Source of the DNA: a virus | Lineage: Duplodnaviria > Caudoviricetes | Virus record (IMG/VR): IMGVR_UViG_3300032167_000106 | Span: 4,424-68,423 of that record | DNA: 64,000 bases | Strand: one strand, 5' to 3' | In this document: one piece after another, positions 19,826-64,000 of the stretch | Layout: every line of letters begins with the position of its first letter | Position numbering within the stretch: the first letter of the stretch is position 1 | The notes under the pieces: model-generated | Databases searched by the model: none | Seen by the model: the letters and a program-made list of their open reading frames with translations, nothing else | What the model was told of the DNA's origin: nothing | Translations under genes and position numbers: made by a program

Positions 19826-20032
19826 ATGGATGTCCGATACAGCGTTTATCGTGTGAAAGACGATGCACCGATCGTTATATTCGGGACGATACCGCAGTGT
19901 GCGAAAGCACTCGGCCTCACAATCGACTCGTTTTACAGTCAGGCATCGAAACAGCGGAGCGGAAAGTATTCCGCAGGGAGCAAGCGGAAGTACCGCATAG
20001 TAAGAGAGGAGGCCGACGATGAAACAGCTTAG
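19826..20032 (+). CDS. Small DNA-binding protein (NUMOD1-like HTH)
   Basis: FGTIPQCAKALGLTIDSFY; paralog of 30214-30450. Confidence 0.6.
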   Translation: MDVRYSVYRVKDDAPIVIFGTIPQCAKALGLTIDSFYSQASKQRSGKYSAGSKRKYRIVREEADDETA

Positions 20033-21935
20033 TTATCTCGAAGAAATCATCGTCGATAACTTTGCCGGCGGTGGTGGTGCTTCGACCGGAATTGAACTGG
20101 CATCAGGTAGACCCGTGACAATAGCCATCAACCACGACCCGGATGCAATATTGATGCACCGGACAAATCACCCGTACACGATGCACCTGCAGTCATCCGT
20201 TTGGGAGGTCGACCCGATAGAGGTATGTGCAGGAAGACCTGTTGGCCTCGCTTGGTTCAGTCCTGACTGTAAGCATTTCTCCAAGGCCCGGGGTGATATT
20301 CCGGTAAACAAGGAAATCCGTGCCTTGGCGTGGGTAACTGTCCGCTGGGCACTTGATGTAAAGCCCCGAGTGATAATGCTCGAAAATGTTGAGGAGTTCC
20401 AGACCTGGGGACCGCTGATAAAGGTCATCATCAAGGGTGAAGAAAAGTGGATACCGGATCCCGACCGGGCTGGTGAAACATTTGAGGCGTTCGTGGGGGC
20501 GTTGTCCACAGGCGTCCCCGCCGACCATCCTGCCTTGGATGAAGTGTGCGAATACCTGAAAATCAAAAGGGACGGCCCGGAGATCCAACGGATCATCGAC
20601 GGCCTCGGGTATGATGTAGAGTTCAAGGAATTGGTCGCTGCTGACTACGGTGCTCCCACTACCCGTAAACGGTTTGTACTGGTTGCCCGATGCGACGGAA
20701 AGCCTATTGCTTGGCCTGAGCGTACACACGCACCTCGCAACAGCGAAGAAGTTAAATCCGGAAAGCTCCCCGCCTGGGTTCCTGCAGCAGACATCATCGA
20801 CTGGAGCCTGCCTGGGTATTCGATTTTTGAAAGCAAAGAGGAGATCAAGCGGAAATACGGTGCAAAGGCACAACGACCGCTGGCACCAAACACGCTTCGT
20901 CGTGTTATCAAGGGTGTGGACAAGTTCACGATCAAGAGCGGCGATCCGTTCCTGATTGAGTGTAACCACAGCGGTGGCGGACACATAAGAAGCATAAAGG
21001 ACCCTGTCAACACTGTAACTGGTAAGTTCACCTGTGGTGTGGTCGATCCCGTAATCGCCCCGTTCACATTCAGCAATACGGGTGGAAGTGTAGGCTCCCC
21101 TGCGTCCGAACCTATTGGCACAGTACGAACCTGCGGAGGGCAGATCCTTGCAGCGGCTCAGCTTATGAGCATTGGGCAAACCGGAGGTGGCGATCGTATT
21201 CGTGACATCCGGGATCCTGTACCGACAACGGTATCTAAGCAAGAAACTTGCCTTGTATCCGCCCATCTGTCGGAGTTCCGAAACGCATCCATTGGCAGAG
21301 ATATGAGAGAACCTGCCGGCACTGTTACCAGTCACGACCACGAAGGAGTTGTTTCTGCCCATATCCAGAAGTTCTACGGCGGAGTTATCGGGGAGGATGC
21401 GAGAGAGCCGCTGCCGACGGTGACATCGGTTGACCACAACGCACTCTGCTCGGCTCATATCGTTAAGTTCAAAGGGCAGGAGCTGGGGCAGCATCCGTTG
21501 GATGCGCTGAATACGATAACCGCACAAGGGCTTGAATATGCGGATTGCAGAGCGGTTCTTGCAAAGCTGGACGGTGCGACAGACCTCGGACACTGGGATG
21601 AGATCCGAAAGCTCCTGAATGAGCATTGCGGATACAACCTGGCAGAAGATGAAATCATCCTGCTGATTATCCGTGGTGTCGCTCACTACATTCACGACAT
21701 AACCCTTCGTATGCTGACACCTCGGGAGCTTTACAACGCAATGGGCTTCCCGCCTGATTACGCCATTGAGTTTGATTTCCTCGGGAATGTATATCCCAAG
21801 AATAAACAGGTGGCCCGTTGCGGAAACGCCGTGTGTCCGCCATTGGCAGAGGCAATGACGAAGGCGAACTTCCCTGAGTGGTTTGAAATCAAGATCGTAA
21901 CGATGGCACAGCTCGACGCAGTCGTGACAGCATAG
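20019..21935 (+). CDS. DNA (cytosine-5) methyltransferase, phage type with a long insert
   Basis: Motif I DNFAGGGG, motif IV SPDC, motif VI ENVEEF, motif VIII RKR, C-terminal GNAV. Confidence 0.95.
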   Translation: MKQLSYLEEIIVDNFAGGGGASTGIELASGRPVTIAINHDPDAILMHRTNHPYTMHLQSSVWEVDPIEVCAGRPVGLAWFSPDCKHFSKARGDIPVNKEIRALAWVTVRWALDVKPRVIMLENVEEFQTWGPLIKVIIKGEEKWIPDPDRAGETFEAFVGALSTGVPADHPALDEVCEYLKIKRDGPEIQRIIDGLGYDVEFKELVAADYGAPTTRKRFVLVARCDGKPIAWPERTHAPRNSEEVKSGKLPAWVPAADIIDWSLPGYSIFESKEEIKRKYGAKAQRPLAPNTLRRVIKGVDKFTIKSGDPFLIECNHSGGGHIRSIKDPVNTVTGKFTCGVVDPVIAPFTFSNTGGSVGSPASEPIGTVRTCGGQILAAAQLMSIGQTGGGDRIRDIRDPVPTTVSKQETCLVSAHLSEFRNASIGRDMREPAGTVTSHDHEGVVSAHIQKFYGGVIGEDAREPLPTVTSVDHNALCSAHIVKFKGQELGQHPLDALNTITAQGLEYADCRAVLAKLDGATDLGHWDEIRKLLNEHCGYNLAEDEIILLIIRGVAHYIHDITLRMLTPRELYNAMGFPPDYAIEFDFLGNVYPKNKQVARCGNAVCPPLAEAMTKANFPEWFEIKIVTMAQLDAVVTA

Positions 21936-37813: not shown

Positions 37814-37856
37814 ACGCCCAGGACTATGCAAAGCCCTGGGCGTCTGTTATTTTTTG
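37814..37856. terminator. Hairpin at the integrase 3' end
   Basis: ACGCCCAGG...CCTGGGCGT stem next to the stop at 37847. Confidence 0.65.
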
Positions 37857-39568
37857 TAGGTGAATGAGTGCCTAATGCCGTTTTTGAATACGATCGCCGT
37901 GATCTTGCCGTCCGTAGCCTCGATGCTTTCGATGACGCTCTTGATGAAGCTCCTGGGGATGCTGGGATCTATTTGGCGGATGTATTTCTCATAGTCGACA
38001 TAGGTGTCCTCCAACAGCTTGGAGACCATAATGAAATAGCTTGCCTTTTCGATGAACTCGTCGTCGGCAAGTGGGCCGTAGTTGTCCTCGTCCTCTTTGA
38101 ACTCGCTCAGTTTCTGGTCGATCTCGTCGATGGCAGATAAGATCCGTTGCCGCTCGACGATGTAGTCCTTCTCGGCAAGGTTGCCTTCGCCGTACAGATA
38201 GAGCGACTTGAGCCGGTTCATCGCTACCTCGTGCTTCCGCTTCCGGGATAGCAGAGCATCCCGTTCGTTGACCGACTCGGATGTCTTGCTGAAGACGCCT
38301 GCAGGTCGATACTCCAGACCTGACACGCCGGTGAGCAGGAGGTCGTGCATTTGCTGCAGACCATCAGGGCAGATAGCTTCGACTTCGGAGAAGATCTCGC
38401 CACGGAGCAGCTTCTTCTCCAGACCCACAAGACCAGTCCGCTTTGTAACGGAGTCTTTGGCACGAATGATGTTCGCAATGTAGTTGAACACGAATGGACC
38501 GACGACGATGTCGGAGATATACTTGTTTCGGCAGTCGATGTTACTGCTCCGTCGCCTGTTACAGCCGTAGATCGAAGGCCGCCAACCGTCTGCCCGGACA
38601 CGGTCGAGCGTAGCACTCATATTGGAGCCGCAGCTTCCGCACCGGACGATGCCGGCGAAAATGTGGGTATTCTTCCGGACATAGCTTGTACCCTCGGCAA
38701 CGCCACCACGCCTGTTCCGTTTCAGCAGGAACTGGATGCGGTCGAAAAGGACATCGTCAATGATGGGAGGATGGTGATCCTCGTAGGTGATCCACTCGGA
38801 CGCATCCCTGGCCTTGTACCCGCCGTCGCCTTGCTGTGTAACATTGTACCGGTAGTGCCCGATGTAAAATGGGTTCTTCAGGACTTTGCTGACAGAAGTG
38901 GGAGTCCAAGGCTTTCCGGAGCGGGTGAAGATCTCGTGCTCGTTCATGTACCGGGCAACATAGAGAAGGGACTGCTCCCGCTCGTATAGCTCGTAGATCC
39001 TGCGGACCACCTTAGCCTCGACGGAATCTGGCTCGAACACCTTGGTCAGCTTGTCGTATTTGTATCCGTATGGGATGCGTCCACCGTTCCATTGACCGTT
39101 CTCTGCACGGGACAGCATAACGGAGGTGACACGCTCACCGGTCATCTTCCGCTCCAGCTCCGCAAAAACGAGGATGATCTTCTGCATTGCCTCGCCGATC
39201 GCTGTGCTGGTGTCCAGCTGCTCGTTCTTTGAAACGAAGGTAACGCCGAGACGCTTGAGCTCCTCGTACATACCGGCAAAGTCGAGAAGGTTTCTGCTGA
39301 TGCGGTCGATCTTCCAGACCAGCAGGTGTGAGAACTCACCGGAACGCAATCGCTCCATCATCTCCTGATAGTCCGGGCGATCGGTGTTCTTTGCAGAGTA
39401 GCCTGCGTCCTCGAATACGAAATAGTCCTGGATACCAAGAACCATCTGTGCGTAGGCGATCAGCTCCCGCTTCTGTACCTGAAGGGAGTCTTTGTCCACC
39501 TGCCAGTGGGTTGAAACACGAATGTAAATGGCAACCTTGAGTGCCCGTAATTTCTCAAGTACGCTCAA
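37847..39568 (-). CDS. Large serine recombinase (phage integrase)
   Basis: VAIYIRVST...DRPDY...WKIDRISRN catalytic domain, recombinase domain, CGSCG zinc ribbon, coiled coil; RBS AAGGAGG favours TTG 39568 over 39622. Confidence 0.95.
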   Translation of the reverse strand: MSVLEKLRALKVAIYIRVSTHWQVDKDSLQVQKRELIAYAQMVLGIQDYFVFEDAGYSAKNTDRPDYQEMMERLRSGEFSHLLVWKIDRISRNLLDFAGMYEELKRLGVTFVSKNEQLDTSTAIGEAMQKIILVFAELERKMTGERVTSVMLSRAENGQWNGGRIPYGYKYDKLTKVFEPDSVEAKVVRRIYELYEREQSLLYVARYMNEHEIFTRSGKPWTPTSVSKVLKNPFYIGHYRYNVTQQGDGGYKARDASEWITYEDHHPPIIDDVLFDRIQFLLKRNRRGGVAEGTSYVRKNTHIFAGIVRCGSCGSNMSATLDRVRADGWRPSIYGCNRRRSSNIDCRNKYISDIVVGPFVFNYIANIIRAKDSVTKRTGLVGLEKKLLRGEIFSEVEAICPDGLQQMHDLLLTGVSGLEYRPAGVFSKTSESVNERDALLSRKRKHEVAMNRLKSLYLYGEGNLAEKDYIVERQRILSAIDEIDQKLSEFKEDEDNYGPLADDEFIEKASYFIMVSKLLEDTYVDYEKYIRQIDPSIPRSFIKSVIESIEATDGKITAIVFKNGIRHSFTYKK

Positions 39569-39599
39569 TGGTAGTGCCTCCTTGCTTTTGATAGGATAT

Positions 39600-39681
39600 T
39601 CCACGGAAATTCCACCGGACAATCCGTGGATTTTCCTGCCTTAACCGTAACCGTAACCTAACCGTAACCGTAATCATACCG
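39600..39681 (+). repeat. Iteron-like repeats: CCACGG/CCGTGG-type motifs followed by a (TAACCG)n tract
   Basis: TCCACGGAAATTCCACCGGACAATCCGTGGATTTTCC then TTAACCGTAACCGTAACCTAACCGTAACCGTAATCATACCG. Confidence 0.85.
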
Positions 39682-48609: not shown

Positions 48610-48636
48610 TGCCTCCCCGGGGTGAGGGAGGAAATT

Positions 48637-49326
48637 ATGAAATCACCCATTGATGTGATAAAGGGACGGATCGTCGACTTCGATGAGAATGGCAAGCTGA
48701 CCATCGAGGCGTATTACCCGGACTGGCGGACGATGACCCGCCGGGAGTACAGCGAGTGCAATATCCAGATGATCGACGGACGCCCGTTATCCAATAAGCA
48801 GCGGCGAACCTGTTACAAGCTGCTTCGGGAGATTTCGGCTTACACGGGTATGGGACTGGATCCCACGAAGGAATGGACGAAGATCAAGTTCCTTGCTGAG
48901 GATCTGGAAGAAACAGCGGATAAGATATTCTCCCTATCCGACGCCCCGATGTCCCTGGTATGTGCCTACCAGCGGTTCCTGGTACGGTTCATTCTTGACT
49001 GGGACATCCCGTGTAGCTTCTCCCTGTTAGACTTTGTGGATGATACCAACGATTACATCTATGCCTGCCTTGAACATAAGAAGTGTTGCATCTGCGGACA
49101 GCACTGCGACCTGCACCATGTAGACCGAGTAGGTATGGGCGGCGATCGTGAAGAAATGGTACACGAGGGTATGGAAGTTCTCCCGCTTTGCCGTGGACAC
49201 CACACAGAGCTCCACAACACCGGCGACCGAGAGTTCTACGCCCAGTACCATCTCGTCAAAGGCATCATCCTCGATAAGTACCTCTGTAAAATTTATGGCT
49301 TGAAATCGAGCAAGGAGGAAATGTAA
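48637..49326 (+). CDS. Putative HNHc nuclease (DUF968-like)
   Basis: KKCCICG...DLHHVDRVG...LPLCRGHHTELH. Confidence 0.85.
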   Translation: MKSPIDVIKGRIVDFDENGKLTIEAYYPDWRTMTRREYSECNIQMIDGRPLSNKQRRTCYKLLREISAYTGMGLDPTKEWTKIKFLAEDLEETADKIFSLSDAPMSLVCAYQRFLVRFILDWDIPCSFSLLDFVDDTNDYIYACLEHKKCCICGQHCDLHHVDRVGMGGDREEMVHEGMEVLPLCRGHHTELHNTGDREFYAQYHLVKGIILDKYLCKIYGLKSSKEEM

Positions 49327-49773: not shown

Positions 49774-50559
49774 ATGGAGAAGACGAAAATCGAGTGGGCT
49801 GACTCCTCGTGGAACCCGGTAACGGGCTGCTACCACACCTGCCCCTATTGCTACGCAAGAGGAACCTCGAACCGGTTCAAGGGTTGCGATGCGTCCCCGG
49901 ACGGCACCGCTCCCGATAAGATCGTGGCATTGACCGAGCGACTGCCCGTAACTGATAGCCACGGCAAAACAAGAAATGCCGCATATCCCTATGGCTTCAC
50001 CCCGACCCTGCACGAGTACCGCCTGAACGACCCTGCAACCAAAGGCTTCGGCAAGACGATCTTCGTCTGCTCGATGGCAGATCTGTTCGGCAACTGGGTG
50101 CCTGACGAATGGATCCTGAAGGTGTTTGAAGCCTGCAAAGCGGCACCCGGCCACAGATACCTGTTCCTGACAAAGAACCCCGAGCGATACCTGAAACTCG
50201 CTATGAAGGGGCTGCTTCCCAAGGGCGACGAATACTGGTACGGAACCACCGTAACAGATCCCAGTGTTGAGGCGTTTTGGGCAGACGGATACAACACATT
50301 CATCAGTATGGAACCGATCCTGCAGCCGTTTGGAAAAGCGGAAACAGACTACGCAGGGAAGGTCACGGCAGATTACATCGACTGGATCATTCTCGGAGCT
50401 GAGACCGGGAACCGCAAGGACAAGGTCGTTCCGGAGAGATCCTGGGTCGAAGATGTTGTCCGGGAGTTCCAGGAACGAGGAAAGCCGGTCTTTATGAAAG
50501 ATAGTATGATCCCCATTTGGGGAGAGGAAATCCTCACGCAGACACCGTGGGATGATTGA
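49774..50559 (+). CDS. DUF5131 (phage Gp37/Gp68) radical-SAM-like protein
   Basis: TKIEWADSSWNPVTGC...C.YCYA...FVCSMADLF...LTK.P.R. Confidence 0.9.
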   Translation: MEKTKIEWADSSWNPVTGCYHTCPYCYARGTSNRFKGCDASPDGTAPDKIVALTERLPVTDSHGKTRNAAYPYGFTPTLHEYRLNDPATKGFGKTIFVCSMADLFGNWVPDEWILKVFEACKAAPGHRYLFLTKNPERYLKLAMKGLLPKGDEYWYGTTVTDPSVEAFWADGYNTFISMEPILQPFGKAETDYAGKVTADYIDWIILGAETGNRKDKVVPERSWVEDVVREFQERGKPVFMKDSMIPIWGEEILTQTPWDD

Positions 50560-50570
50560 AGGAGAGCAGT

Positions 50571-51740
50571 ATGACTAAGGATGTAAAGATCTTCGCCAAG
50601 ACAATCGAAGACGAAGCCCGTGAGCAGATTGAAAGGCTTGCAGACCATCCGGTAAGTGATGGAAGCAAGATCCGGGTAATGCCTGATGTTCACGCTGGTG
50701 CAGGTTGCACCATTGGAACGACGATGACCATAACCGATAGGATCTGCCCGAACCTTGTAGGTGTAGACATCGGCTGCGGTATGCTGGCTGTGAGTCTGGG
50801 AGTAAAGAACATTGACTTTGCCAAGCTCGACAGCGTCATCCGATGGAATGTTCCTTCCGGCTTCAACATCCACCCGACGGCGAAGGCGTTCTTCAATCTC
50901 GACGACTTGAAATGTCCGACTGCTGATAAAGTTCGGGCGATCCGGAGCCTTGGCACCTTGGGTGGAGGCAACCACTTCATAGAGGTGAACAGAGGCCGGG
51001 ACGGATACCTCTGGCTCGTCATCCACTCCGGAAGCCGGCATCTCGGCCTGGAGGTAGCGGGATAATACCAGGATCTTGCGTGGAAGACGATGTCTCAGCC
51101 GGGACAGGAGGAGATGGCCGAGCTGATCGCACGGTACAAGGCAGAAGGCAGGCAGAAAGAAATCGCAGATGCCCTGGCTGCCCTGAAAGCCAAGAAACAG
51201 GACTGCGGACCCAAGGATCTGGCGTACCTGACCGGCGATGCAATGGCTGACTATCTGCACGATATGGGCATTGTCCAGCGATTTGCAGACAAGAACCGGA
51301 TGACAATCGCCGAAGCCATCCTGAAAGGGCTTGGCCTTGGCTGGGGACGGTTTTTCACCACGACCCACAACTACATCGATTTGGAGGAAAAGATCCTGCG
51401 GAAGGGTGCTGTGGCATCCTACCGGGGTGAACAGCTCCTGATCCCGATGAATATGCGGGACGGCTCCCTTCTGTGTGAGGGCAAGGGCAATCCGGACTGG
51501 AACTGCTCGGCTCCCCACGGTGCAGGACGGCTGATGTCTCGGGCGAAGGCGAGGGACACGCTCACAATGGGCGAGTACAAGGCGGCAATGGAGAAGGTTT
51601 ATACCACCTGCGTCAGCTACGATACCATCGACGAGGCACCGGCGGCCTACAAGAAAATGAGCGAGATCATCGAGTGCATTGAACCGACCTGCAAGATCGT
51701 AGATGTACTCAAGCCGGTATACAATTTCAAGGCATCCTAA
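50571..51740 (+). pseudogene. rtcB: RtcB RNA ligase interrupted by one in-frame TAA (51063-51065)
   Basis: MPDVHAG, VGVDIGCG, TLGGGNHF, HSGSR, then TAA, then THNY, RKGA, HGAGR, DEAP.AYK in the same frame. Confidence 0.9.
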
Positions 51741-52163: not shown

Positions 52164-52658
52164 ATGGAAACGGAAAAGTTGTTTGATGCTGACTCGGTCA
52201 AGGAATGGCTCGAAGACTATGTCCTGGCAGAGGAAGACATCGACGGTGAAATTGAGCGGCTCGAATACTTTGTATCCAAGATGACCAGCCTCGGCTCTCA
52301 GAATATGGATGGGATGCCCAGAGCCACAAACGCTTCCACAGACCGAATGGCCGAGATGCTTGCCCGGAAGGAGGAGCTTGAAGGATCTATCCGGGAGTCA
52401 GTCCGGAAGCAGGCAGAGGTCAGAAAGAAAATCGAGGCGGTTGTCCGGAAACTCCGGAAGGTAGAGCGAAGATCCGTGATCCGGTTGAAATACCTCGACC
52501 GTACTGAATGGGACGATGTGCTCGAAGTGATGTACGGCAAGAGGGATGACTTCGACGATAGGTACGATACATACCGTCGGGCGATGTACCGGCATCACGA
52601 GGACGCTCTTGCAGAAATGGCCAGGGTGATGAACCTAATGGCAACGCAGGAAGTTTGA
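52164..52658 (+). CDS. DUF1492 / RinA-ArpU-like late transcriptional regulator
   Basis: Coiled coil then ERSVIRLKYL...WDDV...HEDAL; end of the replication module. Confidence 0.7.
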   Translation: METEKLFDADSVKEWLEDYVLAEEDIDGEIERLEYFVSKMTSLGSQNMDGMPRATNASTDRMAEMLARKEELEGSIRESVRKQAEVRKKIEAVVRKLRKVERRSVIRLKYLDRTEWDDVLEVMYGKRDDFDDRYDTYRRAMYRHHEDALAEMARVMNLMATQEV

Positions 52659-52662
52659 AATA

Positions 52663-52748
52663 CCCGAATACAGCGGTTTCCAGACCAAGAAGCAATACCC
52701 TCTATCATCCGGATAATTTCTATCCGATCTATCAGCCAATTTTGTAGG
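52663..52748 (+). repeat. Intergenic repeat family A, copy 6
   Basis: CCCGAATACAGCGGTTTC...AAGCAATACCCTCTATCATCCGG...ATCAGCCAATTTTG. Confidence 0.85.
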
Positions 52749-55018: not shown

Positions 55019-55255
55019 ATGTTCAAGTTCGTTAAACCATTCCTGGTCGAAGTGGAGGAAGTGGTAAGAAAGAAAGTCGTGGTATATGCAGAGGTGGAGG
55101 AAGATGCCGCTGCCCTTGCTGTGAAAATGATAAAGCAAGGGGTTGTTGCGGTCACTGATGAGCCTGCATCGTATACCTGCAGATCCGTCGTAGACTTTAC
55201 GCCTGAAAACGCATCCAGGTGGTATCCCCGTTACGGGATGGAGGTGAGCAGATGA
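55019..55255 (+). CDS. DpnD/PcfM-like small protein
   Basis: FLVEVEEVVRKKVVVYAEVEEDA. Confidence 0.6.
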   Translation: MFKFVKPFLVEVEEVVRKKVVVYAEVEEDAAALAVKMIKQGVVAVTDEPASYTCRSVVDFTPENASRWYPRYGMEVSR

Positions 55256-56100
55256 AGATCCTGTCTTGCGGTGCTGGTATGCAGTCCACCGCTCTGGCCC
55301 TGATGAGCTGTGAAAATGCCTTGGCTGCCCGGAAAGGGTGGGAGATCCCGCATCCGGAAGTCCCGATCTACGATATTGTCATCTTCTGCGATCTCGGCTT
55401 GGAGCCGTCGTGGGTGATGCGGCAATGGTTGTTCATTGAGAGAGCCTGCGACTCGGCAGGCATCCGCCACGAGATGCTTGACACAGATCTGTACGGTCAT
55501 ATTATGGAGAACTTCGGCGAACGCCGAACCGTCAGTGTACCGTGGTGGACTCTGGGTGATGATGGAAAGAAATCTAAGATGCCCAGGAACTGCACAATCG
55601 ACTTTAAGGTTGAGATGATCTCCAAATACATCCGATGGGAAGTCCTCGGCTACAAGAAAGGACAGCGTCTCAAAGACCACGATAAGAAAGCCCACGAGAT
55701 GCACATGGGCTTTTCCAAGGAGGAAGAACGGCGGTGTAAGGAGAGCCCGAACCCGATGTTTATCAACAAGTTCCCGCTCTGCGTTATGGGCTGGACCCGA
55801 GCTGAGTCGTATGCGTACTGTCTGGATGTGTGGGGCCTTGACACCAAGGCTTCCGCCTGCTCGTTCTGCCCGTTCCACCAGAATTACTTCTACAAGTACC
55901 TGAAGGAAAACCACCCGGAAGAATATGCCGCTCTCGTCGAGGTGGACGAGCTCCTGCGGGACAAAAACCCGAAGCCACCGATGGACTCGGATCTGTTCAT
56001 TTCCCGGAGCCGCAAGCGGCTGGAGGATCTCACAGACGAGGACTGCAATGATGCGGTATGCTTTGAATACTGCGGCAAGCAGATCTGGAATGGATTTTAG
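55252..56100 (+). CDS. PAPS-reductase-like (adenine nucleotide alpha hydrolase) protein
   Basis: PP-loop-like ILSCGAGMQST, IFCDLG.E, CT..FK, MGFS..E, SACSFCPF. Confidence 0.8.
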   Translation: MKILSCGAGMQSTALALMSCENALAARKGWEIPHPEVPIYDIVIFCDLGLEPSWVMRQWLFIERACDSAGIRHEMLDTDLYGHIMENFGERRTVSVPWWTLGDDGKKSKMPRNCTIDFKVEMISKYIRWEVLGYKKGQRLKDHDKKAHEMHMGFSKEEERRCKESPNPMFINKFPLCVMGWTRAESYAYCLDVWGLDTKASACSFCPFHQNYFYKYLKENHPEEYAALVEVDELLRDKNPKPPMDSDLFISRSRKRLEDLTDEDCNDAVCFEYCGKQIWNGF

Positions 56101-56557: not shown

Positions 56558-56950
56558 ATGAATAGATTGACTCAACGCATAGGTGTCAATGGTGAGGCGA
56601 TCCTCATTAGCGATATGGAGGAAAAGTTCACTGCTGAGGAGCTGATCGACATCTTGCTTGCTCGGTTGGCAGAGTATGAAGATACCGGATACAGTCCGAA
56701 TGGTGTTATCGCTCTTGCCGAGAAGGTGAAGAAAGGCACGATCGAAGACAAGCCATCCGCCACCGCAAAGACGGATGGGAGCCAGGATGAACTGGCACCG
56801 TGTCCTTTCTGCGGCAGGGAGCCTTATATGCAGATCAGACCTACCGCACGAAAGACCAAGATTTATTCCGTGAAGTGTCAATGTGGTGCAATGCACCGCT
56901 TTGTTGACAGGCGATACAAAGCGGTAGACCAATGGAATGGGAGGGTGTGA
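56558..56950 (+). CDS. Protein with C-terminal Lar (restriction alleviation)-like domain
   Basis: LAPCPFCG...VKCQCGA...AVDQWNGR. Confidence 0.75.
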   Translation: MNRLTQRIGVNGEAILISDMEEKFTAEELIDILLARLAEYEDTGYSPNGVIALAEKVKKGTIEDKPSATAKTDGSQDELAPCPFCGREPYMQIRPTARKTKIYSVKCQCGAMHRFVDRRYKAVDQWNGRV

Positions 56951-59228: not shown

Positions 59229-59232
59229 GACG

Positions 59233-59261
59233 AGCGGCTCTCGAAAGAGGGCCGCTTTTTT
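59233..59261 (+). terminator. Intrinsic terminator
   Basis: AGCGGCTCTC-GAAA-GAGGGCCGCT-TTTTT. Confidence 0.88.
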
Positions 59262-59267
59262 ATGCCC

Positions 59268-59360
59268 AAATGTCCGACTCAAGCCAATACCAGAACCCGA
59301 AGCAATACCCTACATCATTCGGCACCCGGCAATCAGCTCCATTTGCCAATTTTGCAGACC
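59268..59360 (+). repeat. Intergenic repeat family A, copy 7
   Basis: AATGTCCG...AAGCCAATACC...AAGCAATACCCTACATCATTCGGCACCCGGCAATCAGCTCCATTTGCCAATTTTG. Confidence 0.85.
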
Positions 59361-59387: not shown

Positions 59388-59464
59388 TGTCACTGTCACT
59401 AAATGACACGATTTCGCACTGAATTGCATTGAGTTGTCATAAATGCTGGTGTATCGTGTATAAC
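59388..59464 (+). promoter_or_regulatory. Putative late promoter with TGTCAC-like direct repeats
   Basis: TGTCACTGTCACTAAATGACAC...TTGTCATAAA upstream of TATAAC (59459-59464). Confidence 0.5.
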
Positions 59465-59506
59465 AGCAAAAACCGGATGACTGTTGGGGGACAGGAAATC
59501 CACAGA

Positions 59507-59531
59507 GCGTCGCTGAAAAGCGGCGTTTTTT
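59507..59531 (+). terminator. Terminator-like hairpin in the operon leader
   Basis: GCGTCGCT-GAAA-AGCGGCGT-TTTTT, 26 nt before the ATG. Confidence 0.5.
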
Positions 59532-59557: not shown

Positions 59558-60196
59558 ATGGCAAAGAGAATTGAGGTTGTCCAACGCAGAGTTGGTGACC
59601 TGAAACTGGACTTCGGCAATCCTCGTAAGATCAAGAAGCAAAAGAAAGAGGATCTCGAACAGTCCCTGAATGACCACGGCGACTTTGGTATTATCATTAT
59701 CAATGAAAAAGACCAGGTCCTTGGTGGCAACCAGCGTGTTATGATCTTCCAGAAGCAGGATCCTGATATGATGGTGTGGTGTAAGCTGCTGGTCGGCTAT
59801 ACGATTGCCGAGCAGAAGTATGTCAATATCAAGGCGAACAGCCACGCCGGTGAATGGGATCTCGAAGAACTGGGCGACTGGACAGCTGACCTGATGAGCA
59901 GCTTCAAGCTGGATCTGGAGAAACCCGATAAGCCTCTGGAGGAACGGAGCATCAAGGAGATGGAGCCGATCCACTATGAGCAGTATGACTATGTGCTCAT
60001 TGCTTGCCGTAATGAGCTTGACTATAACGACCTCGTCCGGAAGCTGGGCATCGAAGGCGGCACCGTCAAGGTTGCCAAGACCCGGCGGATCAAGGGCAGA
60101 GCGATCTGGTATGACCAGATGAAGTCCCAGATCATCAGTGCTGAGGAGGTCGCCGCAAGAGAGGCGGAGGAGGCTGGCGATGATGAAGAAGAATAA
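59558..60196 (+). CDS. ParB/Srx N-terminal-domain protein
   Basis: LKLDFGNPRKI...IIIINEKDQVLGGNQRV; RBS GGAGGT. Confidence 0.8.
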   Translation: MAKRIEVVQRRVGDLKLDFGNPRKIKKQKKEDLEQSLNDHGDFGIIIINEKDQVLGGNQRVMIFQKQDPDMMVWCKLLVGYTIAEQKYVNIKANSHAGEWDLEELGDWTADLMSSFKLDLEKPDKPLEERSIKEMEPIHYEQYDYVLIACRNELDYNDLVRKLGIEGGTVKVAKTRRIKGRAIWYDQMKSQIISAEEVAAREAEEAGDDEEE

Positions 60197-61418
60197 TCCC
60201 ATCAAGTTTGCGTCCCCCGACCTGAGCAAGAAAGAGCTGAACGAGATCCGGAAGGTACTGGATAGCGGTTGGCTCACGAATGGCCCGGTCGTCCGGGATT
60301 TCGAGCGGAAGATTGCTTCGATGAGCAACTGCCGCAGAGCAGTCGCTTTTGACAGCTGTACCGCAGCGATGGAGATGACGCTCCGTGCCTTGGGCATCGG
60401 CCCTGGGGATGAAGTCATCACCACACCGTATACATATTCCGCAACGGCGGAAGTCATCCGAAACACGGGAGCCAAGATCGTATTCGTCGATCTGGCTCCT
60501 AACTCTTTTGAGATGGACTACCACCTGGTTGAAAAGGCGATTACGCCCCGTACCAAGGCAGTCATTCCGGTTGACATCGGCGGCAAGCTCTGCAACTACG
60601 CAGCACTCCAGCTTGCGATCGAACTGAAGTCCAACATCTTCAAGCCGGCCAATCCGGTGCAGGAGGCGATGGGCAGAGTTGCTATTGTAGCAGATGCAGC
60701 TCACAGCTTCGGTGCAGAACAGGACAGCCACCTTGCCGGCGAACTGGCGGATTTCACCTGCTTCAGTTTCCATGTGCTGAAATGTATCACCACCGGAGGC
60801 GAGGGTGGTGCGGTAGTGTGGAAAGAGATCCACGGTATCGACAACGCCAAGTTCGAGGAAACCCTGAGGCTGCTTGGCGATCACGGCCAAACATCCCGGG
60901 ATAAGTCGACCGGTTGGGAGTACGACATCGCCCTGTTCGGCTATAACCACATTATGACGAACATCGACGCCGCAATGGGCATTGCCCAGTTGGATCGGTT
61001 CAAGGAGATCTGCGACAGACGGATGGAGGTAACGCTCCGGTACGATGAGCTGTTCGCCAAGACCGATGTGGCGGAGCCGATGATCCAGCACTTCGGGTCG
61101 AACTACACCAGCTCGATGCACCTGTACCCGATCCGGTTGGCAACACCTGCGTTCCTGACTGAACAGGACAAGGGACACGAGTTCTGGAGAAATATGGTGT
61201 ACCGCCAGCTCCGGGCAGCAGGGATCCCCTGCAATGTTCACTACAAGCCCCTGCCTATGATGACGGCCTACAAGAACGCAGGCTTCGACATCGCAGATTA
61301 CCCCAACGCCTACAAGCAGTTCCGTAGCTTGCTGACGATCCCGTACCACACCTACCTGACTGCAGAACAGCAGGAGTTCATCGTGGATACCATCGGAAAG
61401 GTGGCGATGGGCGTATGA
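60180..61418 (+). CDS. DegT/DnrJ/EryC1/StrS PLP-dependent sugar aminotransferase
   Basis: SGWLTNGP, PGDEVITT, ADAAHSFG, SFHVLKCITTGGEGG (PLP lysine), GYN. Confidence 0.95.
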   Translation: MMKKNNPIKFASPDLSKKELNEIRKVLDSGWLTNGPVVRDFERKIASMSNCRRAVAFDSCTAAMEMTLRALGIGPGDEVITTPYTYSATAEVIRNTGAKIVFVDLAPNSFEMDYHLVEKAITPRTKAVIPVDIGGKLCNYAALQLAIELKSNIFKPANPVQEAMGRVAIVADAAHSFGAEQDSHLAGELADFTCFSFHVLKCITTGGEGGAVVWKEIHGIDNAKFEETLRLLGDHGQTSRDKSTGWEYDIALFGYNHIMTNIDAAMGIAQLDRFKEICDRRMEVTLRYDELFAKTDVAEPMIQHFGSNYTSSMHLYPIRLATPAFLTEQDKGHEFWRNMVYRQLRAAGIPCNVHYKPLPMMTAYKNAGFDIADYPNAYKQFRSLLTIPYHTYLTAEQQEFIVDTIGKVAMGV

Positions 61419-62392
61419 GTGATACCATCAAGGGTGCGACCATACTGATTACCGGCGGCACCGGTACATTCGGCAATGCCTTCCTCGACAAGTGCTTGGA
61501 GATGGATGCAGCCGAAGTCCGGATCTTCAGCCGGGATGAGAAGAAACAGTATGATATGGCACAGAGATACCGGGAGCACAAGAATGTCAAGTTCTTCCTC
61601 GGAGACATCCGGGATAAGCGGACACTTGACCCGGCTATGTACGGCGTTGACTATGTGTTCCACGCCGCAGCTATGAAGCAGGTTCCCTCCTGCGAACGCT
61701 TCCCGATGGAGGCTGTGAAGACCAACATCCAGGGCAGCGAGAACCTCTTGATCTCCGCAGTCCAGCGGCGGGTCAAGAAGGTTGTTTGCCTGTCTACCGA
61801 TAAGGCGGTGTATCCCACCTCCGCTATGGGTATGACCAAGGCATATATGGAGAAGTTGGCTCTGCAAAGAGCTGAGGAGCAGGACCGTACACAGATCTGC
61901 ATCACCCGGTTTGGCAACCTGGTTGCATCCCGGGGTAGTGCTGTGCCTCTGTTCATTGAGCAGGTGCAGACTGGTATGCCGATCACGATTACCCATCCGG
62001 ATATGACCCGCTTCCTGATGACCGTCAATGAGGCGGTCGATCTGGTAGCCCGTGCGTTCAGCCTGGGTCAGAACGGTGAGCTCCTCGTCAAGAAGTCCTC
62101 TGCCTGTACGACCGGAGATCTGGCGAGTGCGGTATGTAAGTACCTGAACCTGCCTGAGGATTACCCCAAGAAGATCATCGGCATCCGCCCCGGCGAGAAA
62201 ATGCACGAAGCATTGCTGACCGAGGAGGAGGCAGAGCTGGCCACTGTGAAGGGAGACTACATCGTAGTATCCCGGAAGCGGGACAGCGTGGGTAGGATTG
62301 ACGCCCAGTACAAGTCCGAGCTTGCACCCCGTATGACGGAGGAGCAGGTATTGAACCTGATCCGCAGTGTGTTCGAGGGAGGTGTTCACTGA
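61415..62392 (+). CDS. UDP-GlcNAc 4,6-dehydratase (CapE/FnlA/PseB-type)
   Basis: ITGGTGTFG, FSRDEKKQ, HAAAMKQVPSCE, STDKAVYP..AMGMTK, IRPGEKMHE. Confidence 0.93.
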   Translation: MSDTIKGATILITGGTGTFGNAFLDKCLEMDAAEVRIFSRDEKKQYDMAQRYREHKNVKFFLGDIRDKRTLDPAMYGVDYVFHAAAMKQVPSCERFPMEAVKTNIQGSENLLISAVQRRVKKVVCLSTDKAVYPTSAMGMTKAYMEKLALQRAEEQDRTQICITRFGNLVASRGSAVPLFIEQVQTGMPITITHPDMTRFLMTVNEAVDLVARAFSLGQNGELLVKKSSACTTGDLASAVCKYLNLPEDYPKKIIGIRPGEKMHEALLTEEEAELATVKGDYIVVSRKRDSVGRIDAQYKSELAPRMTEEQVLNLIRSVFEGGVH

Positions 62393-63096
62393 TGCCTAAG
62401 AAGATCCTGTTTGTAGTTGCCCATCCGGACGACGAGCTCCTGGGAGCCGGTGCGTTCATCCACGATGCAGCTAAGGCAGGCCACGAGATTGCCGTGGCGG
62501 TGCTGAACACCTGTGACACTACCCGCTATCAGGATGATTTTAAGCGGATCGTCGCTGATATGGTACGGACACACCACGAAGTCGGTATTTCGCAGTTGTA
62601 TCCATTCTGCTATACCGACAGCAACTTCCACAATGCCGACCATCGCCAGATGGTACAGGACATTGAGAAGGTGATGCGGGAGTTCCAGCCTGATTACATT
62701 TTCACCCAGCACCCCGGTGATATTAACACCGATCACTACTGGACGGCAGCATCCTGTATGGAAGCCTTCCGCCTGTGGCAACGGGGCCGGGAGGAGATGA
62801 AGCCGGTCAAGGCTCTCTACCTGATGGAAGTCCAGTCCTCTACCGACTGGGCACTGAACCCGTCGATCAAGAAATTCGACGCCAATACCTACATCCCGGT
62901 AACGGAGGCAGGTGTGGCGGCTAAGATCCGTGCATTGGGACTGTATGAGAATGTCATCCGTCCCGTTCCGCATCCCCGGAGCGAGGAAGCTCTTTGGGCA
63001 TTGCCCCGGCTCCGTGGTGCACAGTGCGGTATGCCGTATGCTGAGGCGTTCGAGTGCGTGTTCAGACTGGAGGGGATTGTATGGGGGACTTGGTAG
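62392..63096 (+). CDS. PIG-L/LmbE family N-acetyl sugar deacetylase
   Basis: VAHPDDE and HPGDINTDH metal motifs; AEAF near the C-terminus. Confidence 0.92.
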   Translation: MPKKILFVVAHPDDELLGAGAFIHDAAKAGHEIAVAVLNTCDTTRYQDDFKRIVADMVRTHHEVGISQLYPFCYTDSNFHNADHRQMVQDIEKVMREFQPDYIFTQHPGDINTDHYWTAASCMEAFRLWQRGREEMKPVKALYLMEVQSSTDWALNPSIKKFDANTYIPVTEAGVAAKIRALGLYENVIRPVPHPRSEEALWALPRLRGAQCGMPYAEAFECVFRLEGIVWGTW

Positions 63097-63785
63097 TCCT
63101 TGCGTCCCACCAGCCTGACTTTTTCCCGTGGATGGGATATTTCTACAAGATATTCCGGAGTAAGATCTTCGTATTCTCCGACAATGTCCAGTATTCCAAG
63201 TCAGCCCGACACAACTACAACGACATCCTGACTGCCAATGGTCCGCAGCGGTTCACGCTGCCGATCCACTACCATTGCGTTGACATCGACAAGATGGAGA
63301 TCGCAGCGGATGAGCGAGTTGTGGAGAAGATGCTGAAGACCTTGAAGTTTGCATACGGAAAGGCAAAGCACTTCGATGAGGTGTACCCGGTAATGGAGGA
63401 GCTGCTCGGTCGGGCACCGACGGCGAAAAGCCTTGCCGATTTCAACTATATGTGCATATTCGATTTCTGCCATCGGTTCGGTATGTTCGATGATGGTACT
63501 GAGCGGGAGTTCTATCGCTCCTCTTGGCTCAACCTCAAGGAACGCCGGGACGCACGGATCATCGAGATGTGCAAGCTCCTGAACGCAGATATGTATATCA
63601 GCGGGTCAGGGGCGAAAGATTACCACATCGAGGAAGATTACCGGAACAACGGGATCGACCTCGTCTATTCTGACTATGAACCGGTGGTTTACGATCAGGT
63701 GGGAGGCAAGCAGGTTATCAACCTGTCTGTCATCGACTATGTGATGAACTGCGGGTTTGAGATCCCGAGGGGGTGGAAAGTATGA
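63081..63785 (+). CDS. wbqC: WbqC family protein (putative glycyl/aminoacyl transferase)
   Basis: HQPDFFPWMGYFYKI...DNVQY...YISGSGAKDY...LSVIDYVMN. Confidence 0.88.
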   Translation: MGDLVVLASHQPDFFPWMGYFYKIFRSKIFVFSDNVQYSKSARHNYNDILTANGPQRFTLPIHYHCVDIDKMEIAADERVVEKMLKTLKFAYGKAKHFDEVYPVMEELLGRAPTAKSLADFNYMCIFDFCHRFGMFDDGTEREFYRSSWLNLKERRDARIIEMCKLLNADMYISGSGAKDYHIEEDYRNNGIDLVYSDYEPVVYDQVGGKQVINLSVIDYVMNCGFEIPRGWKV

Positions 63786-64000
63786 ATGAACCGACATTCG
63801 GTATCTATATTCCCAGCTACAAGCGGTTCAAGACCTGTACCGCCCACCAGTTTTTGGAGTATGGTACTTACATCGTAAGAGAGAGCGAGTACGAGGACTA
63901 TGTAGCGGCTCTGGCTGACTACCCTCACATCAAGGTGCAGGCGGTCGAAGATAGCCAGATCTGCGGACTGACTGAAGTAAACCAATGGCTCATTGATAAC
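63782..64000 (+). CDS. GT-A glycosyltransferase, TAGT/GREB1-like, 3'-truncated
   Basis: Read by hand (absent from the ORF track): MNEPTFGIYIPSYKRFKTCTAHQFLEYGTYIVRESEYEDY...ICGLTEVNQWLIDN; ATGA overlap with wbqC. Confidence 0.65.
   Translation, partial: MNEPTFGIYIPSYKRFKTCTAHQFLEYGTYIVRESEYEDYVAALADYPHIKVQAVEDSQICGLTEVNQWLIDN

Follow-up and report, generated by a model that had tools for sequence, protein, structure and literature searches.

The cassette at positions 59558–64000 of the stretch analysed here (the window: 64,000 nt, bases 4424–68423 of the 68.4-kb linear IMG/VR viral contig IMGVR_UViG_3300032167_000106, the window end being also the contig end) belongs to a widespread phage system, of which it forms the variable portion that makes the sugar; the fixed part is a three-protein core encoded before terS and terL. 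The core consists of a ParB-like protein, a glycosyltransferase (GT) and a protein resembling the C-terminal domain of RarA/MgsA (hereafter MgsA_C-like). Judged from sequence, structural models and analogy, the system would add an aminoacylated amino sugar to phage DNA at a late stage, after replication, a reading to which we assign a probability of roughly 0.55, and it is filed here as a variant related to the known post-replicative phage DNA hypermodification clusters. An earlier, sequence-only reading of this region had proposed a new hypermodification system; no published description was found, and the cassette is not a one-off but represents one variant of a large modular family.

The cassette comprises six overlapping + strand genes, with start/stop overlaps of 17, 4, 1, 16 and 4 nt between successive genes. 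An identical gene order was found in 11 IMG/VR contigs at 55–83% protein identity, and is therefore not attributable to chance. Together with the family searches, which identified five of the genes, these observations indicate that the six tightly coupled genes first described are real. The last of them (63782..64000, + strand; alternative start 63773) is cut by the contig end after its N-terminal 73 codons, and the 76-aa fragment in the window yielded no Pfam match on its own. The missing end was supplied by ~100-kb contigs that carry the exact PIG-L protein of the window, and the full-length GT (240 aa) was read from L017:11394–12116, a ~100-kb contig with 95% identical DNA over the cassette. 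The gene order in these contigs is WbqC, the 240-aa GT, a protein of 296–311 aa, a 76-aa protein, TerS, TerL, a portal-NUDIX fusion and MuF. Only packaging genes were thus recovered downstream, and the flippase or polymerase that the sequence-only reading had named as its refutation did not appear. No flippase, polymerase, initiating phosphoglycosyl transferase, second GT or membrane protein was found in or after the cassette, the downstream region being read in L017, L018 and L019, and all cassette proteins are predicted to be soluble, with no hydrophobic segment and a highest 19-residue Kyte-Doolittle mean of at most 1.25. A surface polysaccharide, O-antigen or teichoic-acid locus was rejected on the lack of a flippase, polymerase, initiating transferase or membrane protein in these regions.

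Loci related to the cassette were gathered in four ways: via WbqC, via the GT (in species genomes), via the ParB-like protein and via the protein that follows the GT. The same frame was present in all four collections, namely the ParB-like gene, a variable set of genes, then those for the GT, MgsA_C-like and 76-aa proteins, and finally those for TerS and TerL. The GT was present in 78 of the 78 testable IMG/VR loci retrieved via the ParB-like protein, and in every testable locus retrieved via the MgsA_C-like protein, of which at least 540 relatives were found in IMG/VR. It also occurs in 51 species genomes of GTDB. Across hundreds of gut prophages of Oscillospiraceae, Lachnospiraceae and Bacteroidota, the combination of the ParB-like protein, a GT resembling the TET-associated glycosyltransferases (TAGT) and the MgsA_C-like protein does not vary, the hosts named on the genome records being Lawsonibacter, Oscillospiraceae, Acutalibacteraceae, Lachnospiraceae, Ruminococcus, Faecalibacterium, Bacteroides, Parabacteroides, Alloprevotella and Treponema. 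In all-against-all clustering of the flanking open reading frames (ORFs), the universal members were limited to the three core proteins, the 76-aa protein and the packaging genes, and no other conserved candidate enzyme emerged in the flanks.

The genes located between the ParB-like gene and the GT are interchangeable. In the window they are a DegT aminotransferase, a dehydratase, a PIG-L deacetylase and WbqC. Elsewhere this position is occupied by PglD, PIG-L and WbqC; by PIG-L and WbqC; by DegT, dehydratase, PIG-L and an ATP-grasp ligase; by an ATP-grasp ligase and an ornithine/diaminopimelate (Orn/DAP) decarboxylase; by DegT and dehydratase only; by a UDP-glucose dehydrogenase; or by no gene at all, leaving the core trio. 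Glf, a FemAB-like enzyme or an S-adenosylmethionine (SAM) methyltransferase occur as extras in some variants. The cassettes in which only PIG-L, WbqC and the GT are present must rely on a nucleotide sugar of the host.

The GT is, from its sequence and model, a distant member of the TAGT family. PF20691 (TAGT) was matched by 21 of 21 aligned GT homologues at E <0.01 (best 1.8e-12), and a precomputed PF20691 domain is found on many homologues at 50–60% identity. PHROG 842, annotated as "beta-glucosyl-HMC-alpha-glucosyltransferase", also matches the GT (E 1.5e-8). The AlphaFold2 (AF2) model has a GT-A fold (pLDDT 87.7) with a DDD motif, D83, D84 and D85, that is invariant or nearly so among the homologues, in agreement with the original call of a GT-A glycosyltransferase truncated by the window. 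The top structural neighbours of the model in BFVD are TAGT-annotated phage proteins (TM 0.72–0.81), and include the T-even-type beta-glucosyl-HMC-alpha-glucosyltransferase (TM 0.73); solved GT-A enzymes reach only a TM of ~0.55, and a sequence search against PDB chains returned nothing useful. A profile search of 1.84 billion representatives detected 844 relatives, 51 of them at E <=1e-30.

The first gene (59558..60196, + strand, start ATG 59558) encodes a 212-aa protein predicted to have the ParB-CTPase fold. It had no match in Pfam, ParBc not being reached at E <0.01, and nothing useful was returned by a sequence search against PDB chains. Its initial annotation as ParB-like is supported by two ParB-like families, PHROG 498 and 620 (E 5e-17 and 6e-15), and by an AF2 model built with 28 homologues, for which the top Foldseek matches in the PDB were pNOB8 ParB-N, Noc, ParB-CDP, PadC, KorB and sulfiredoxin; a serine kinase was also among the ParB/Srx-fold matches. 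Invariant residues in the alignment form a GNPR box (G20, N21, P22 and R23) and a GxQR box (G57, Q59 and R60). The N-domain is followed by a conserved C-terminal domain whose fold was not recognised, and residues 117–143 are modelled at low confidence. A canonical partition ParB was considered and rejected, as the protein has only 212 aa and shows no recognisable helix-turn-helix (HTH), with no ParA-like gene among the called neighbours; parS was not searched for. The third core member, the protein that follows the GT, resembles the RarA/MgsA C-terminal domain as represented by 2r9g (E 9e-5), 8g28 and 3pvs, and Protein Atlas also gave a weak MgsA_C lead for it.

The second and third genes of the cassette are predicted to make the sugar. 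The first of these two encodes a 412-aa DegT-family, pyridoxal phosphate (PLP)-dependent sugar 4-aminotransferase (60180..61418, + strand, alternative start 60138; PF01041, E 2e-86) with its catalytic lysine intact in the sequence SFHVLK. By a wide margin its closest solved relative is Spr1654 (6EWJ, E 3e-96), the Streptococcus pneumoniae aminotransferase assigned or predicted to act in making UDP-AATGal (the UDP form of 2-acetamido-4-amino-2,4,6-trideoxygalactose) for teichoic acid. The other encodes a 325-aa UDP-GlcNAc 4,6-dehydratase of the CapE/FnlA type (61415..62392, + strand; Polysacc_synt_2, PF02719, E 2e-97), with intact motifs GGTGTFG at residue 14, TDKA at 128 and MGMTK at 138; the replacement of YxxxK by MxxxK is what we take to be the mark of the CapE/FnlA dehydratase subfamily. 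The nearest structures are the FnlA-type 4j2o and CapE 3vvb (E 4e-96 and 1e-92), with FlaA1/PseB and PglF farther away, and the best NCBIfam model is FnlA, followed by PseB; the FnlA score of 343 lies below the cut-off of 730, so that the protein is not assigned as its equivalog. Because the dehydratase lies near CapE/FnlA and the aminotransferase near Spr1654, the donor is most likely UDP-2-acetamido-4-amino-2,4,6-trideoxyhexose, a compound whose stereochemistry is not readable from sequence. The proposal that these two enzymes make a 4-amino-4,6-dideoxy-HexNAc is thus upheld as a prediction from their motifs and nearest relatives.

In its use of a 4,6-dehydratase and a DegT enzyme on UDP-GlcNAc, with catalytic motifs intact, the cassette would resemble the pathways to UDP-AATGal and other 4-amino-4,6-dideoxy-HexNAc sugars (Spr1654, CapE/FnlA, PseB/PseC). 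It differs from them in scoring under every NCBIfam equivalog cut-off, and in lacking both the downstream Pse, Leg or Fnl enzymes and any lipid-carrier machinery. A pseudaminic-acid pathway was rejected on the scores for PseB (284 against a cut-off of 408) and PseC (278 against 424) and on the absence of further Pse genes in the cassette or downstream of it, and neither pseudaminic acid nor bacillosamine was retained as a full explanation, as the later enzymes of those pathways are missing.

The next two genes are predicted to tailor the sugar. The PIG-L/LmbE-family de-N-acetylase (234 aa, 62392..63096, + strand; PF02585, E 9e-19, 68.6 bits against a cut-off of 28.2) retains the AHPDDE metal-binding motif at residues 10–15. 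Its best NCBIfam models are BshB1, BshB2 and MshB, but it scores far under their cut-offs (40.9 against 182.5 bits). The WbqC-family protein, also of 234 aa (63081..63785, + strand, alternative start 63054), is a strong match to PF08889 (E 5e-54, 183.8 bits against a cut-off of 21.3), and its neighbours in Protein Atlas are all WbqC; a sequence search against PDB chains returned nothing useful, and no experimental function for the family was found in the literature. In otherwise identical cassettes an ATP-grasp ligase fills the WbqC slot, and a FemAB-like enzyme is found in another cassette. Because ATP-grasp ligases replace it in sister cassettes, WbqC is best read as catalysing an amide-forming step, an aminoacyl or acyl transfer, which is consistent with the role originally suggested for it. 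In the ATP-grasp variants (L035, L063, L046 and ~20 other loci) the ligase is always accompanied by a PLP decarboxylase of the ornithine/diaminopimelate/arginine type and often by a UDP-galactopyranose mutase, pointing to ligation of an amino acid whose subsequent decarboxylation would leave a polyamine-like side chain. The cultured Parabacteroides faecalis AGMB00274 also carries an ATP-grasp variant (L067). The WbqC of the Escherichia coli O121/Shigella dysenteriae 7 O-antigen cluster belongs to the same family and likewise lies beside a 4-amino-4,6-dideoxy sugar pathway; the protein described here differs in its location in a phage packaging operon and in being interchangeable with ATP-grasp ligases.

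PIG-L enzymes are known to deacetylate GlcNAc glycosides after transfer, the substrates including GlcNAc-phosphatidylinositol, GlcNAc-inositol, GlcNAc-malate and N-acetylparomamine. On this family precedent the probable substrate of both PIG-L and WbqC is the conjugate formed by transfer and not the nucleotide sugar, and the original placement of de-N-acetylation and acylation within the building of the sugar is revised accordingly. The combination of GT, PIG-L and WbqC or ATP-grasp, with or without PglD, is best explained by the step order of mycothiol, bacillithiol and 2-deoxystreptamine aminoglycoside synthesis. Those pathways use GT-B enzymes (MshA, BshA, BtrM) where the cassette has a GT-A enzyme of the TAGT family, and they differ from it in genomic setting and in the presumed acceptor.

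Several features point to DNA as the target of the GT: the characterised phage members of its family act on DNA, its obligatory partner has the predicted ParB-CTPase fold found in activators of phage thymine dioxygenases, its second partner (MgsA_C-like) derives from a replication-associated protein, and the cassette opens the late packaging operon and encodes only soluble proteins. The acceptors of TAGT enzymes in T6-like phages, which add a second glucose onto glucosyl-hydroxymethylcytosine (glucosyl-hmC), and in TET clusters are DNA-linked (PMC13390438, PMC8256090). Phage ParB-like proteins that have nucleotide-binding and C-terminal domains, without a DNA-binding domain, activate, and are required by, T-dioxygenases on double-stranded DNA (dsDNA), and the neighbourhoods of these T-dioxygenase/ParB pairs are rich in GTs, ParBs and terminases (PMC13229309). 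In the proposed mechanism, the dehydratase and DegT would turn host UDP-GlcNAc into UDP-2-acetamido-4-amino-2,4,6-trideoxyhexose late in the lytic cycle, and the GT would place the amino sugar on replicated phage DNA; the ParB-like partner may activate the GT or hold it on dsDNA, in the manner of the ParB-like activators of the thymine dioxygenases. PIG-L would then strip the 2-N-acetyl group from the DNA-bound sugar and WbqC would acylate one free amine, probably with an amino acid. The product would be a bulky, probably cationic hypermodification that could shield the packaged DNA from host nucleases. We infer the order of these steps, from donor through transfer and deacetylation to acylation, as well as the DNA target and the acyl donor.

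The closest parallels are the 5mYOX (TET/JBP) hypermodification clusters (Burke et al. 2021, PMC8256090; O'Toole et al. 2026, PMC13229309). Common to both systems are a GT-A enzyme of the TAGT type and a short ParB-CTPase-fold protein that has no DNA-binding domain; in both, terminase and HNH genes often adjoin, and the accessory genes include sugar epimerases or dehydratases and enzymes that handle amino acids. They differ in that no 5mYOX/TET/JBP enzyme was detected in the 11 records searched here, the ParB-like protein being paired with the GT itself, in the addition of the invariant MgsA_C-like protein, and in the set of amino-sugar, deacetylase and ligase genes, which is not described for 5mYOX clusters. 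The beta-glucosyl-HMC-alpha-glucosyltransferase of T2/T6, the TAGT member of the T-even phages, belongs to the same fold family as the cassette GT. That enzyme adds a second glucose onto glucosyl-5-hydroxymethylcytosine (glucosyl-5hmC), which originates from pre-replicative 5hm-dCTP; here neither a hydroxymethylase nor a first GT is present, and the predicted donor is an amino-trideoxyhexose.

The attachment of the sugar to phage DNA, as proposed in the sequence-only reading, is therefore retained in part: the TAGT-family GT, the ParB-fold and MgsA_C-like partners and the position at the head of the late operon argue for it, but no acceptor-making enzyme was found in the relatives. Neither Tet_JBP (PF12851) nor Thymidylat_synt (PF00303) was matched in the contig itself or in 10 viral records of relatives, of which five are 94–100% complete. 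A ParB-dependent 5mYOX system, considered on account of the ParB-like protein, was rejected on the lack of any PF12851 match in these 11 records; divergent 5mYOXs can escape PF12851 (PMC13229309). Other points also count against DNA as the target. The nearest full-length GT scores 19.4 bits against PF20691, under the gathering cut-off of 27.5. No HTH or other DNA-binding domain is recognisable in the ParB-like protein, of which only the N-domain aligns with ParB structures. The GT, ParB-like and MgsA_C-like proteins are all acidic (median isoelectric point ~5.5), and the phage is temperate, so that a DNA modification would have to be limited to lytic growth. A 638-aa C5 cytosine methylase encoded at 20019–21935, with ~380 residues between its conserved N- and C-terminal motif blocks and perhaps multispecific, is absent from the five relatives searched, including one that is 94% complete, and so does not count among the core genes. 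L020/L021 encode a homologue of equal size, 5.5 kb upstream of their PglD-variant cassette.

The lack of a base-priming enzyme in the 11 records and the acidity of the core proteins would equally suit a GT that glycosylates a protein, whether capsid, portal, terminase or another phage or host protein, with PIG-L and WbqC tailoring the protein-bound sugar on the virion surface or for the control of packaging. The eukaryotic TAGT-like protein GREB1 is reported to O-GlcNAcylate a protein (PMC7968844), which likewise speaks for a protein target and against DNA. The cassette moreover adjoins head and packaging genes, and its high variability resembles the diversity of surface glycans. This reading is nonetheless unlikely, as it leaves unexplained why the GT strictly co-occurs with two partners from DNA-handling lineages, the ParB-CTPase-fold and MgsA_C-like proteins. 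The nearest structural neighbours of the GT are phage DNA-modification GTs, a single GT would yield a monosaccharide, as in DNA modification, and the cassette is not embedded among the structural genes but lies upstream of terS. Attachment to DNA is thus preferred over attachment to protein. In the boldest form of the DNA reading, a Leloir-type GT-A enzyme would act after replication, glycosylating a base that carries no modification, or some other native atom of the DNA, and would need no hydroxymethyl handle; the ParB-like and MgsA_C-like proteins would be its partners, and the aminoacyl-aminosugar would be built in situ on the DNA by PIG-L and WbqC or ATP-grasp. This version is doubtful but deserves to be entertained.

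Two further destinations for the sugar have to be weighed. In the synthesis of mycothiol and bacillithiol a GT, a PIG-L enzyme and a ligase act in that order, followed by an acetyltransferase. The exact match of the GT, PIG-L and ligase steps to this order would fit a soluble small molecule made by mycothiol, bacillithiol or aminoglycoside logic, in which the ParB/Srx-fold protein would be a kinase-like enzyme that does not act on DNA, and such a product would be in keeping with BshB1, BshB2 and MshB as the best models for PIG-L, with the sulfiredoxin and serine kinase among the fold matches of the ParB-like protein, and with the ATP-grasp and PglD variants, which suit ligase and acetylase steps. 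It is quite improbable given that PIG-L falls so far short of those family cut-offs, that the minimal versions consist of ParB, GT and MgsA_C-like proteins with no tailoring genes, that the GT belongs to the TAGT group and not to the GT-B group of MshA and BshA, and that a metabolite offers no rationale for a fixed place before terS in several phage lineages. Highly improbable, too, is lysogenic conversion, in which the amino sugar would alter the wall teichoic acid, capsule or S-layer glycan of the host and so block superinfection or change immune recognition. The phage is temperate and encodes a serine integrase, the closest solved relatives of its DegT and dehydratase (Spr1654 and CapE) work in teichoic-acid and capsule pathways, and there is precedent in the prophage GT-A enzymes that modify teichoic acid. 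Such a role is hard to reconcile with the absence of a flippase, polymerase, initiating phosphoglycosyl transferase or membrane protein in or after the cassette, or with its location behind terminator-like hairpins in a late packaging operon rather than at a moron position near att or the lysis genes; moreover, no solved polysaccharide GT comes as close to the cassette GT as do DNA-modification GTs, and the ParB-like and MgsA_C-like partners would again have no explanation.

The cassette is the head of the late packaging operon, and is preceded by two terminator-like hairpins and by a repeat shared with the late-regulator gene. The first hairpin (59232..59257, + strand; 11-bp stem and T run) follows an HTH_59/DUF2442 gene and marks the end of the preceding transcription unit. 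It is followed by the second copy of a ~90-nt repeat (59268..59357, + strand, 73–77% identical), the first copy of which (52658–52747) follows the gene for a DUF1492-type late regulator (52164–52658, identified by a DUF1492-like match). The second copy is probably part of the control region of the late operon. The two copies are 6610 nt apart, and the interval, which contains many small genes and a Lar-like gene (56558–56950), could represent DNA inserted between the regulator and its promoter. A promoter-like element, TTGTCA-17-TGTATAAC (59434–59465, + strand), precedes the second hairpin and its T run (59504..59529, + strand), which lies 28 nt 5' of the ParB-like start and is a putative leader or attenuator. 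In relatives the cassette directly precedes TerS, TerL and portal.

The contig, with a CheckV completeness of 63%, is that of a temperate phage, as seen in its integrase, endolysin, RecT and DnaC and in the terminase downstream of the cassette in relatives. Nearly all of its genes lie on the + strand, an exception being the serine integrase (37847–39622, - strand). An amidase endolysin (171–1661) is related to endolysins of Acutalibacter and Faecalibacterium phages, an exonuclease, RecT, a replication initiator and DnaC are encoded at 42.8–46.9 kb, and a dUTPase gene is also present; no head or tail genes are found on the contig, these being located past its end. The cassette had no blastn match among GenBank phages (INPHARED). 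The stretch is present in sequencing runs of animal gut and faecal metagenomes, and contigs from 2 metatranscriptome libraries cover parts of a related cassette, although such contigs cannot show transcription, and DNA carry-over is possible.

Several other genes of these phages are of interest in their own right. The RtcB RNA ligase gene is split or interrupted, with adjacent ORFs at 50556–51065 and 51090–51740 that match the N- and C-terminal parts and align to positions 61–236 and 245–442 of the PHROG 1075 profile. A 413-aa reverse transcriptase (L001:1367–2608, before the window start; PHROG 1423, E 6e-57) is encoded ~1.7 kb upstream of the endolysin and may be part of a diversity-generating retroelement or retron. 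A DUF5131 (phage Gp37/Gp68) protein at 49774–50559, with a weak radical-SAM-like N-terminus, adjoins an HNHc_6 nuclease (48622–49326) and is not kept among cassette-bearing phages. A "PAPS-reductase-like" label for 55219–56100 was rejected, there being no Pfam match at E <=0.05 and no PHROG match at E <=1e-5. In all close relatives the portal (Phage_portal_3) is fused to a C-terminal NUDIX domain (L003:15608–18238; L017:15616–17757; L020:15032–17686); a nucleoside-diphosphate-X hydrolase built into a portal is unusual and could be linked to nucleotide-sugar or ADP-ribose chemistry. In a related phage with the PglD variant, an ADP-ribosyltransferase exotoxin domain (PF03496) is encoded by a 446-aa gene situated among those for the head (L020:20540–20717 and a matching JGI contig).

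No paper was found in the literature on the pairing of a ParB-like protein and a TAGT enzyme with amino-sugar tailoring genes. We know of no report of amino-trideoxyhexose, glucosamine, a possible uronic acid or galactofuranose, or amino-acid or polyamine-like additions on DNA, and to our knowledge the phage DNA glycosylations described so far depend on a hydroxymethyl-pyrimidine handle, which the route of this cassette would do without. If the target is a protein, the system would still be an undescribed modular phage glycosylation system. If it is DNA, the cassettes would represent a large unstudied family of DNA hypermodifications in the temperate phages of dominant gut anaerobes, and the ParB-CTPase fold would gain a second role as the partner of a DNA-modifying enzyme. 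A DNA target would also be relevant to sequencing of the gut virome, because modified DNA is under-recovered, and could provide new DNA-labelling tools and possibly a clue to how these phages escape restriction and CRISPR. Should the GT act on an unmodified base, this would be a categorically new DNA-modification chemistry, present in hundreds of gut prophages.

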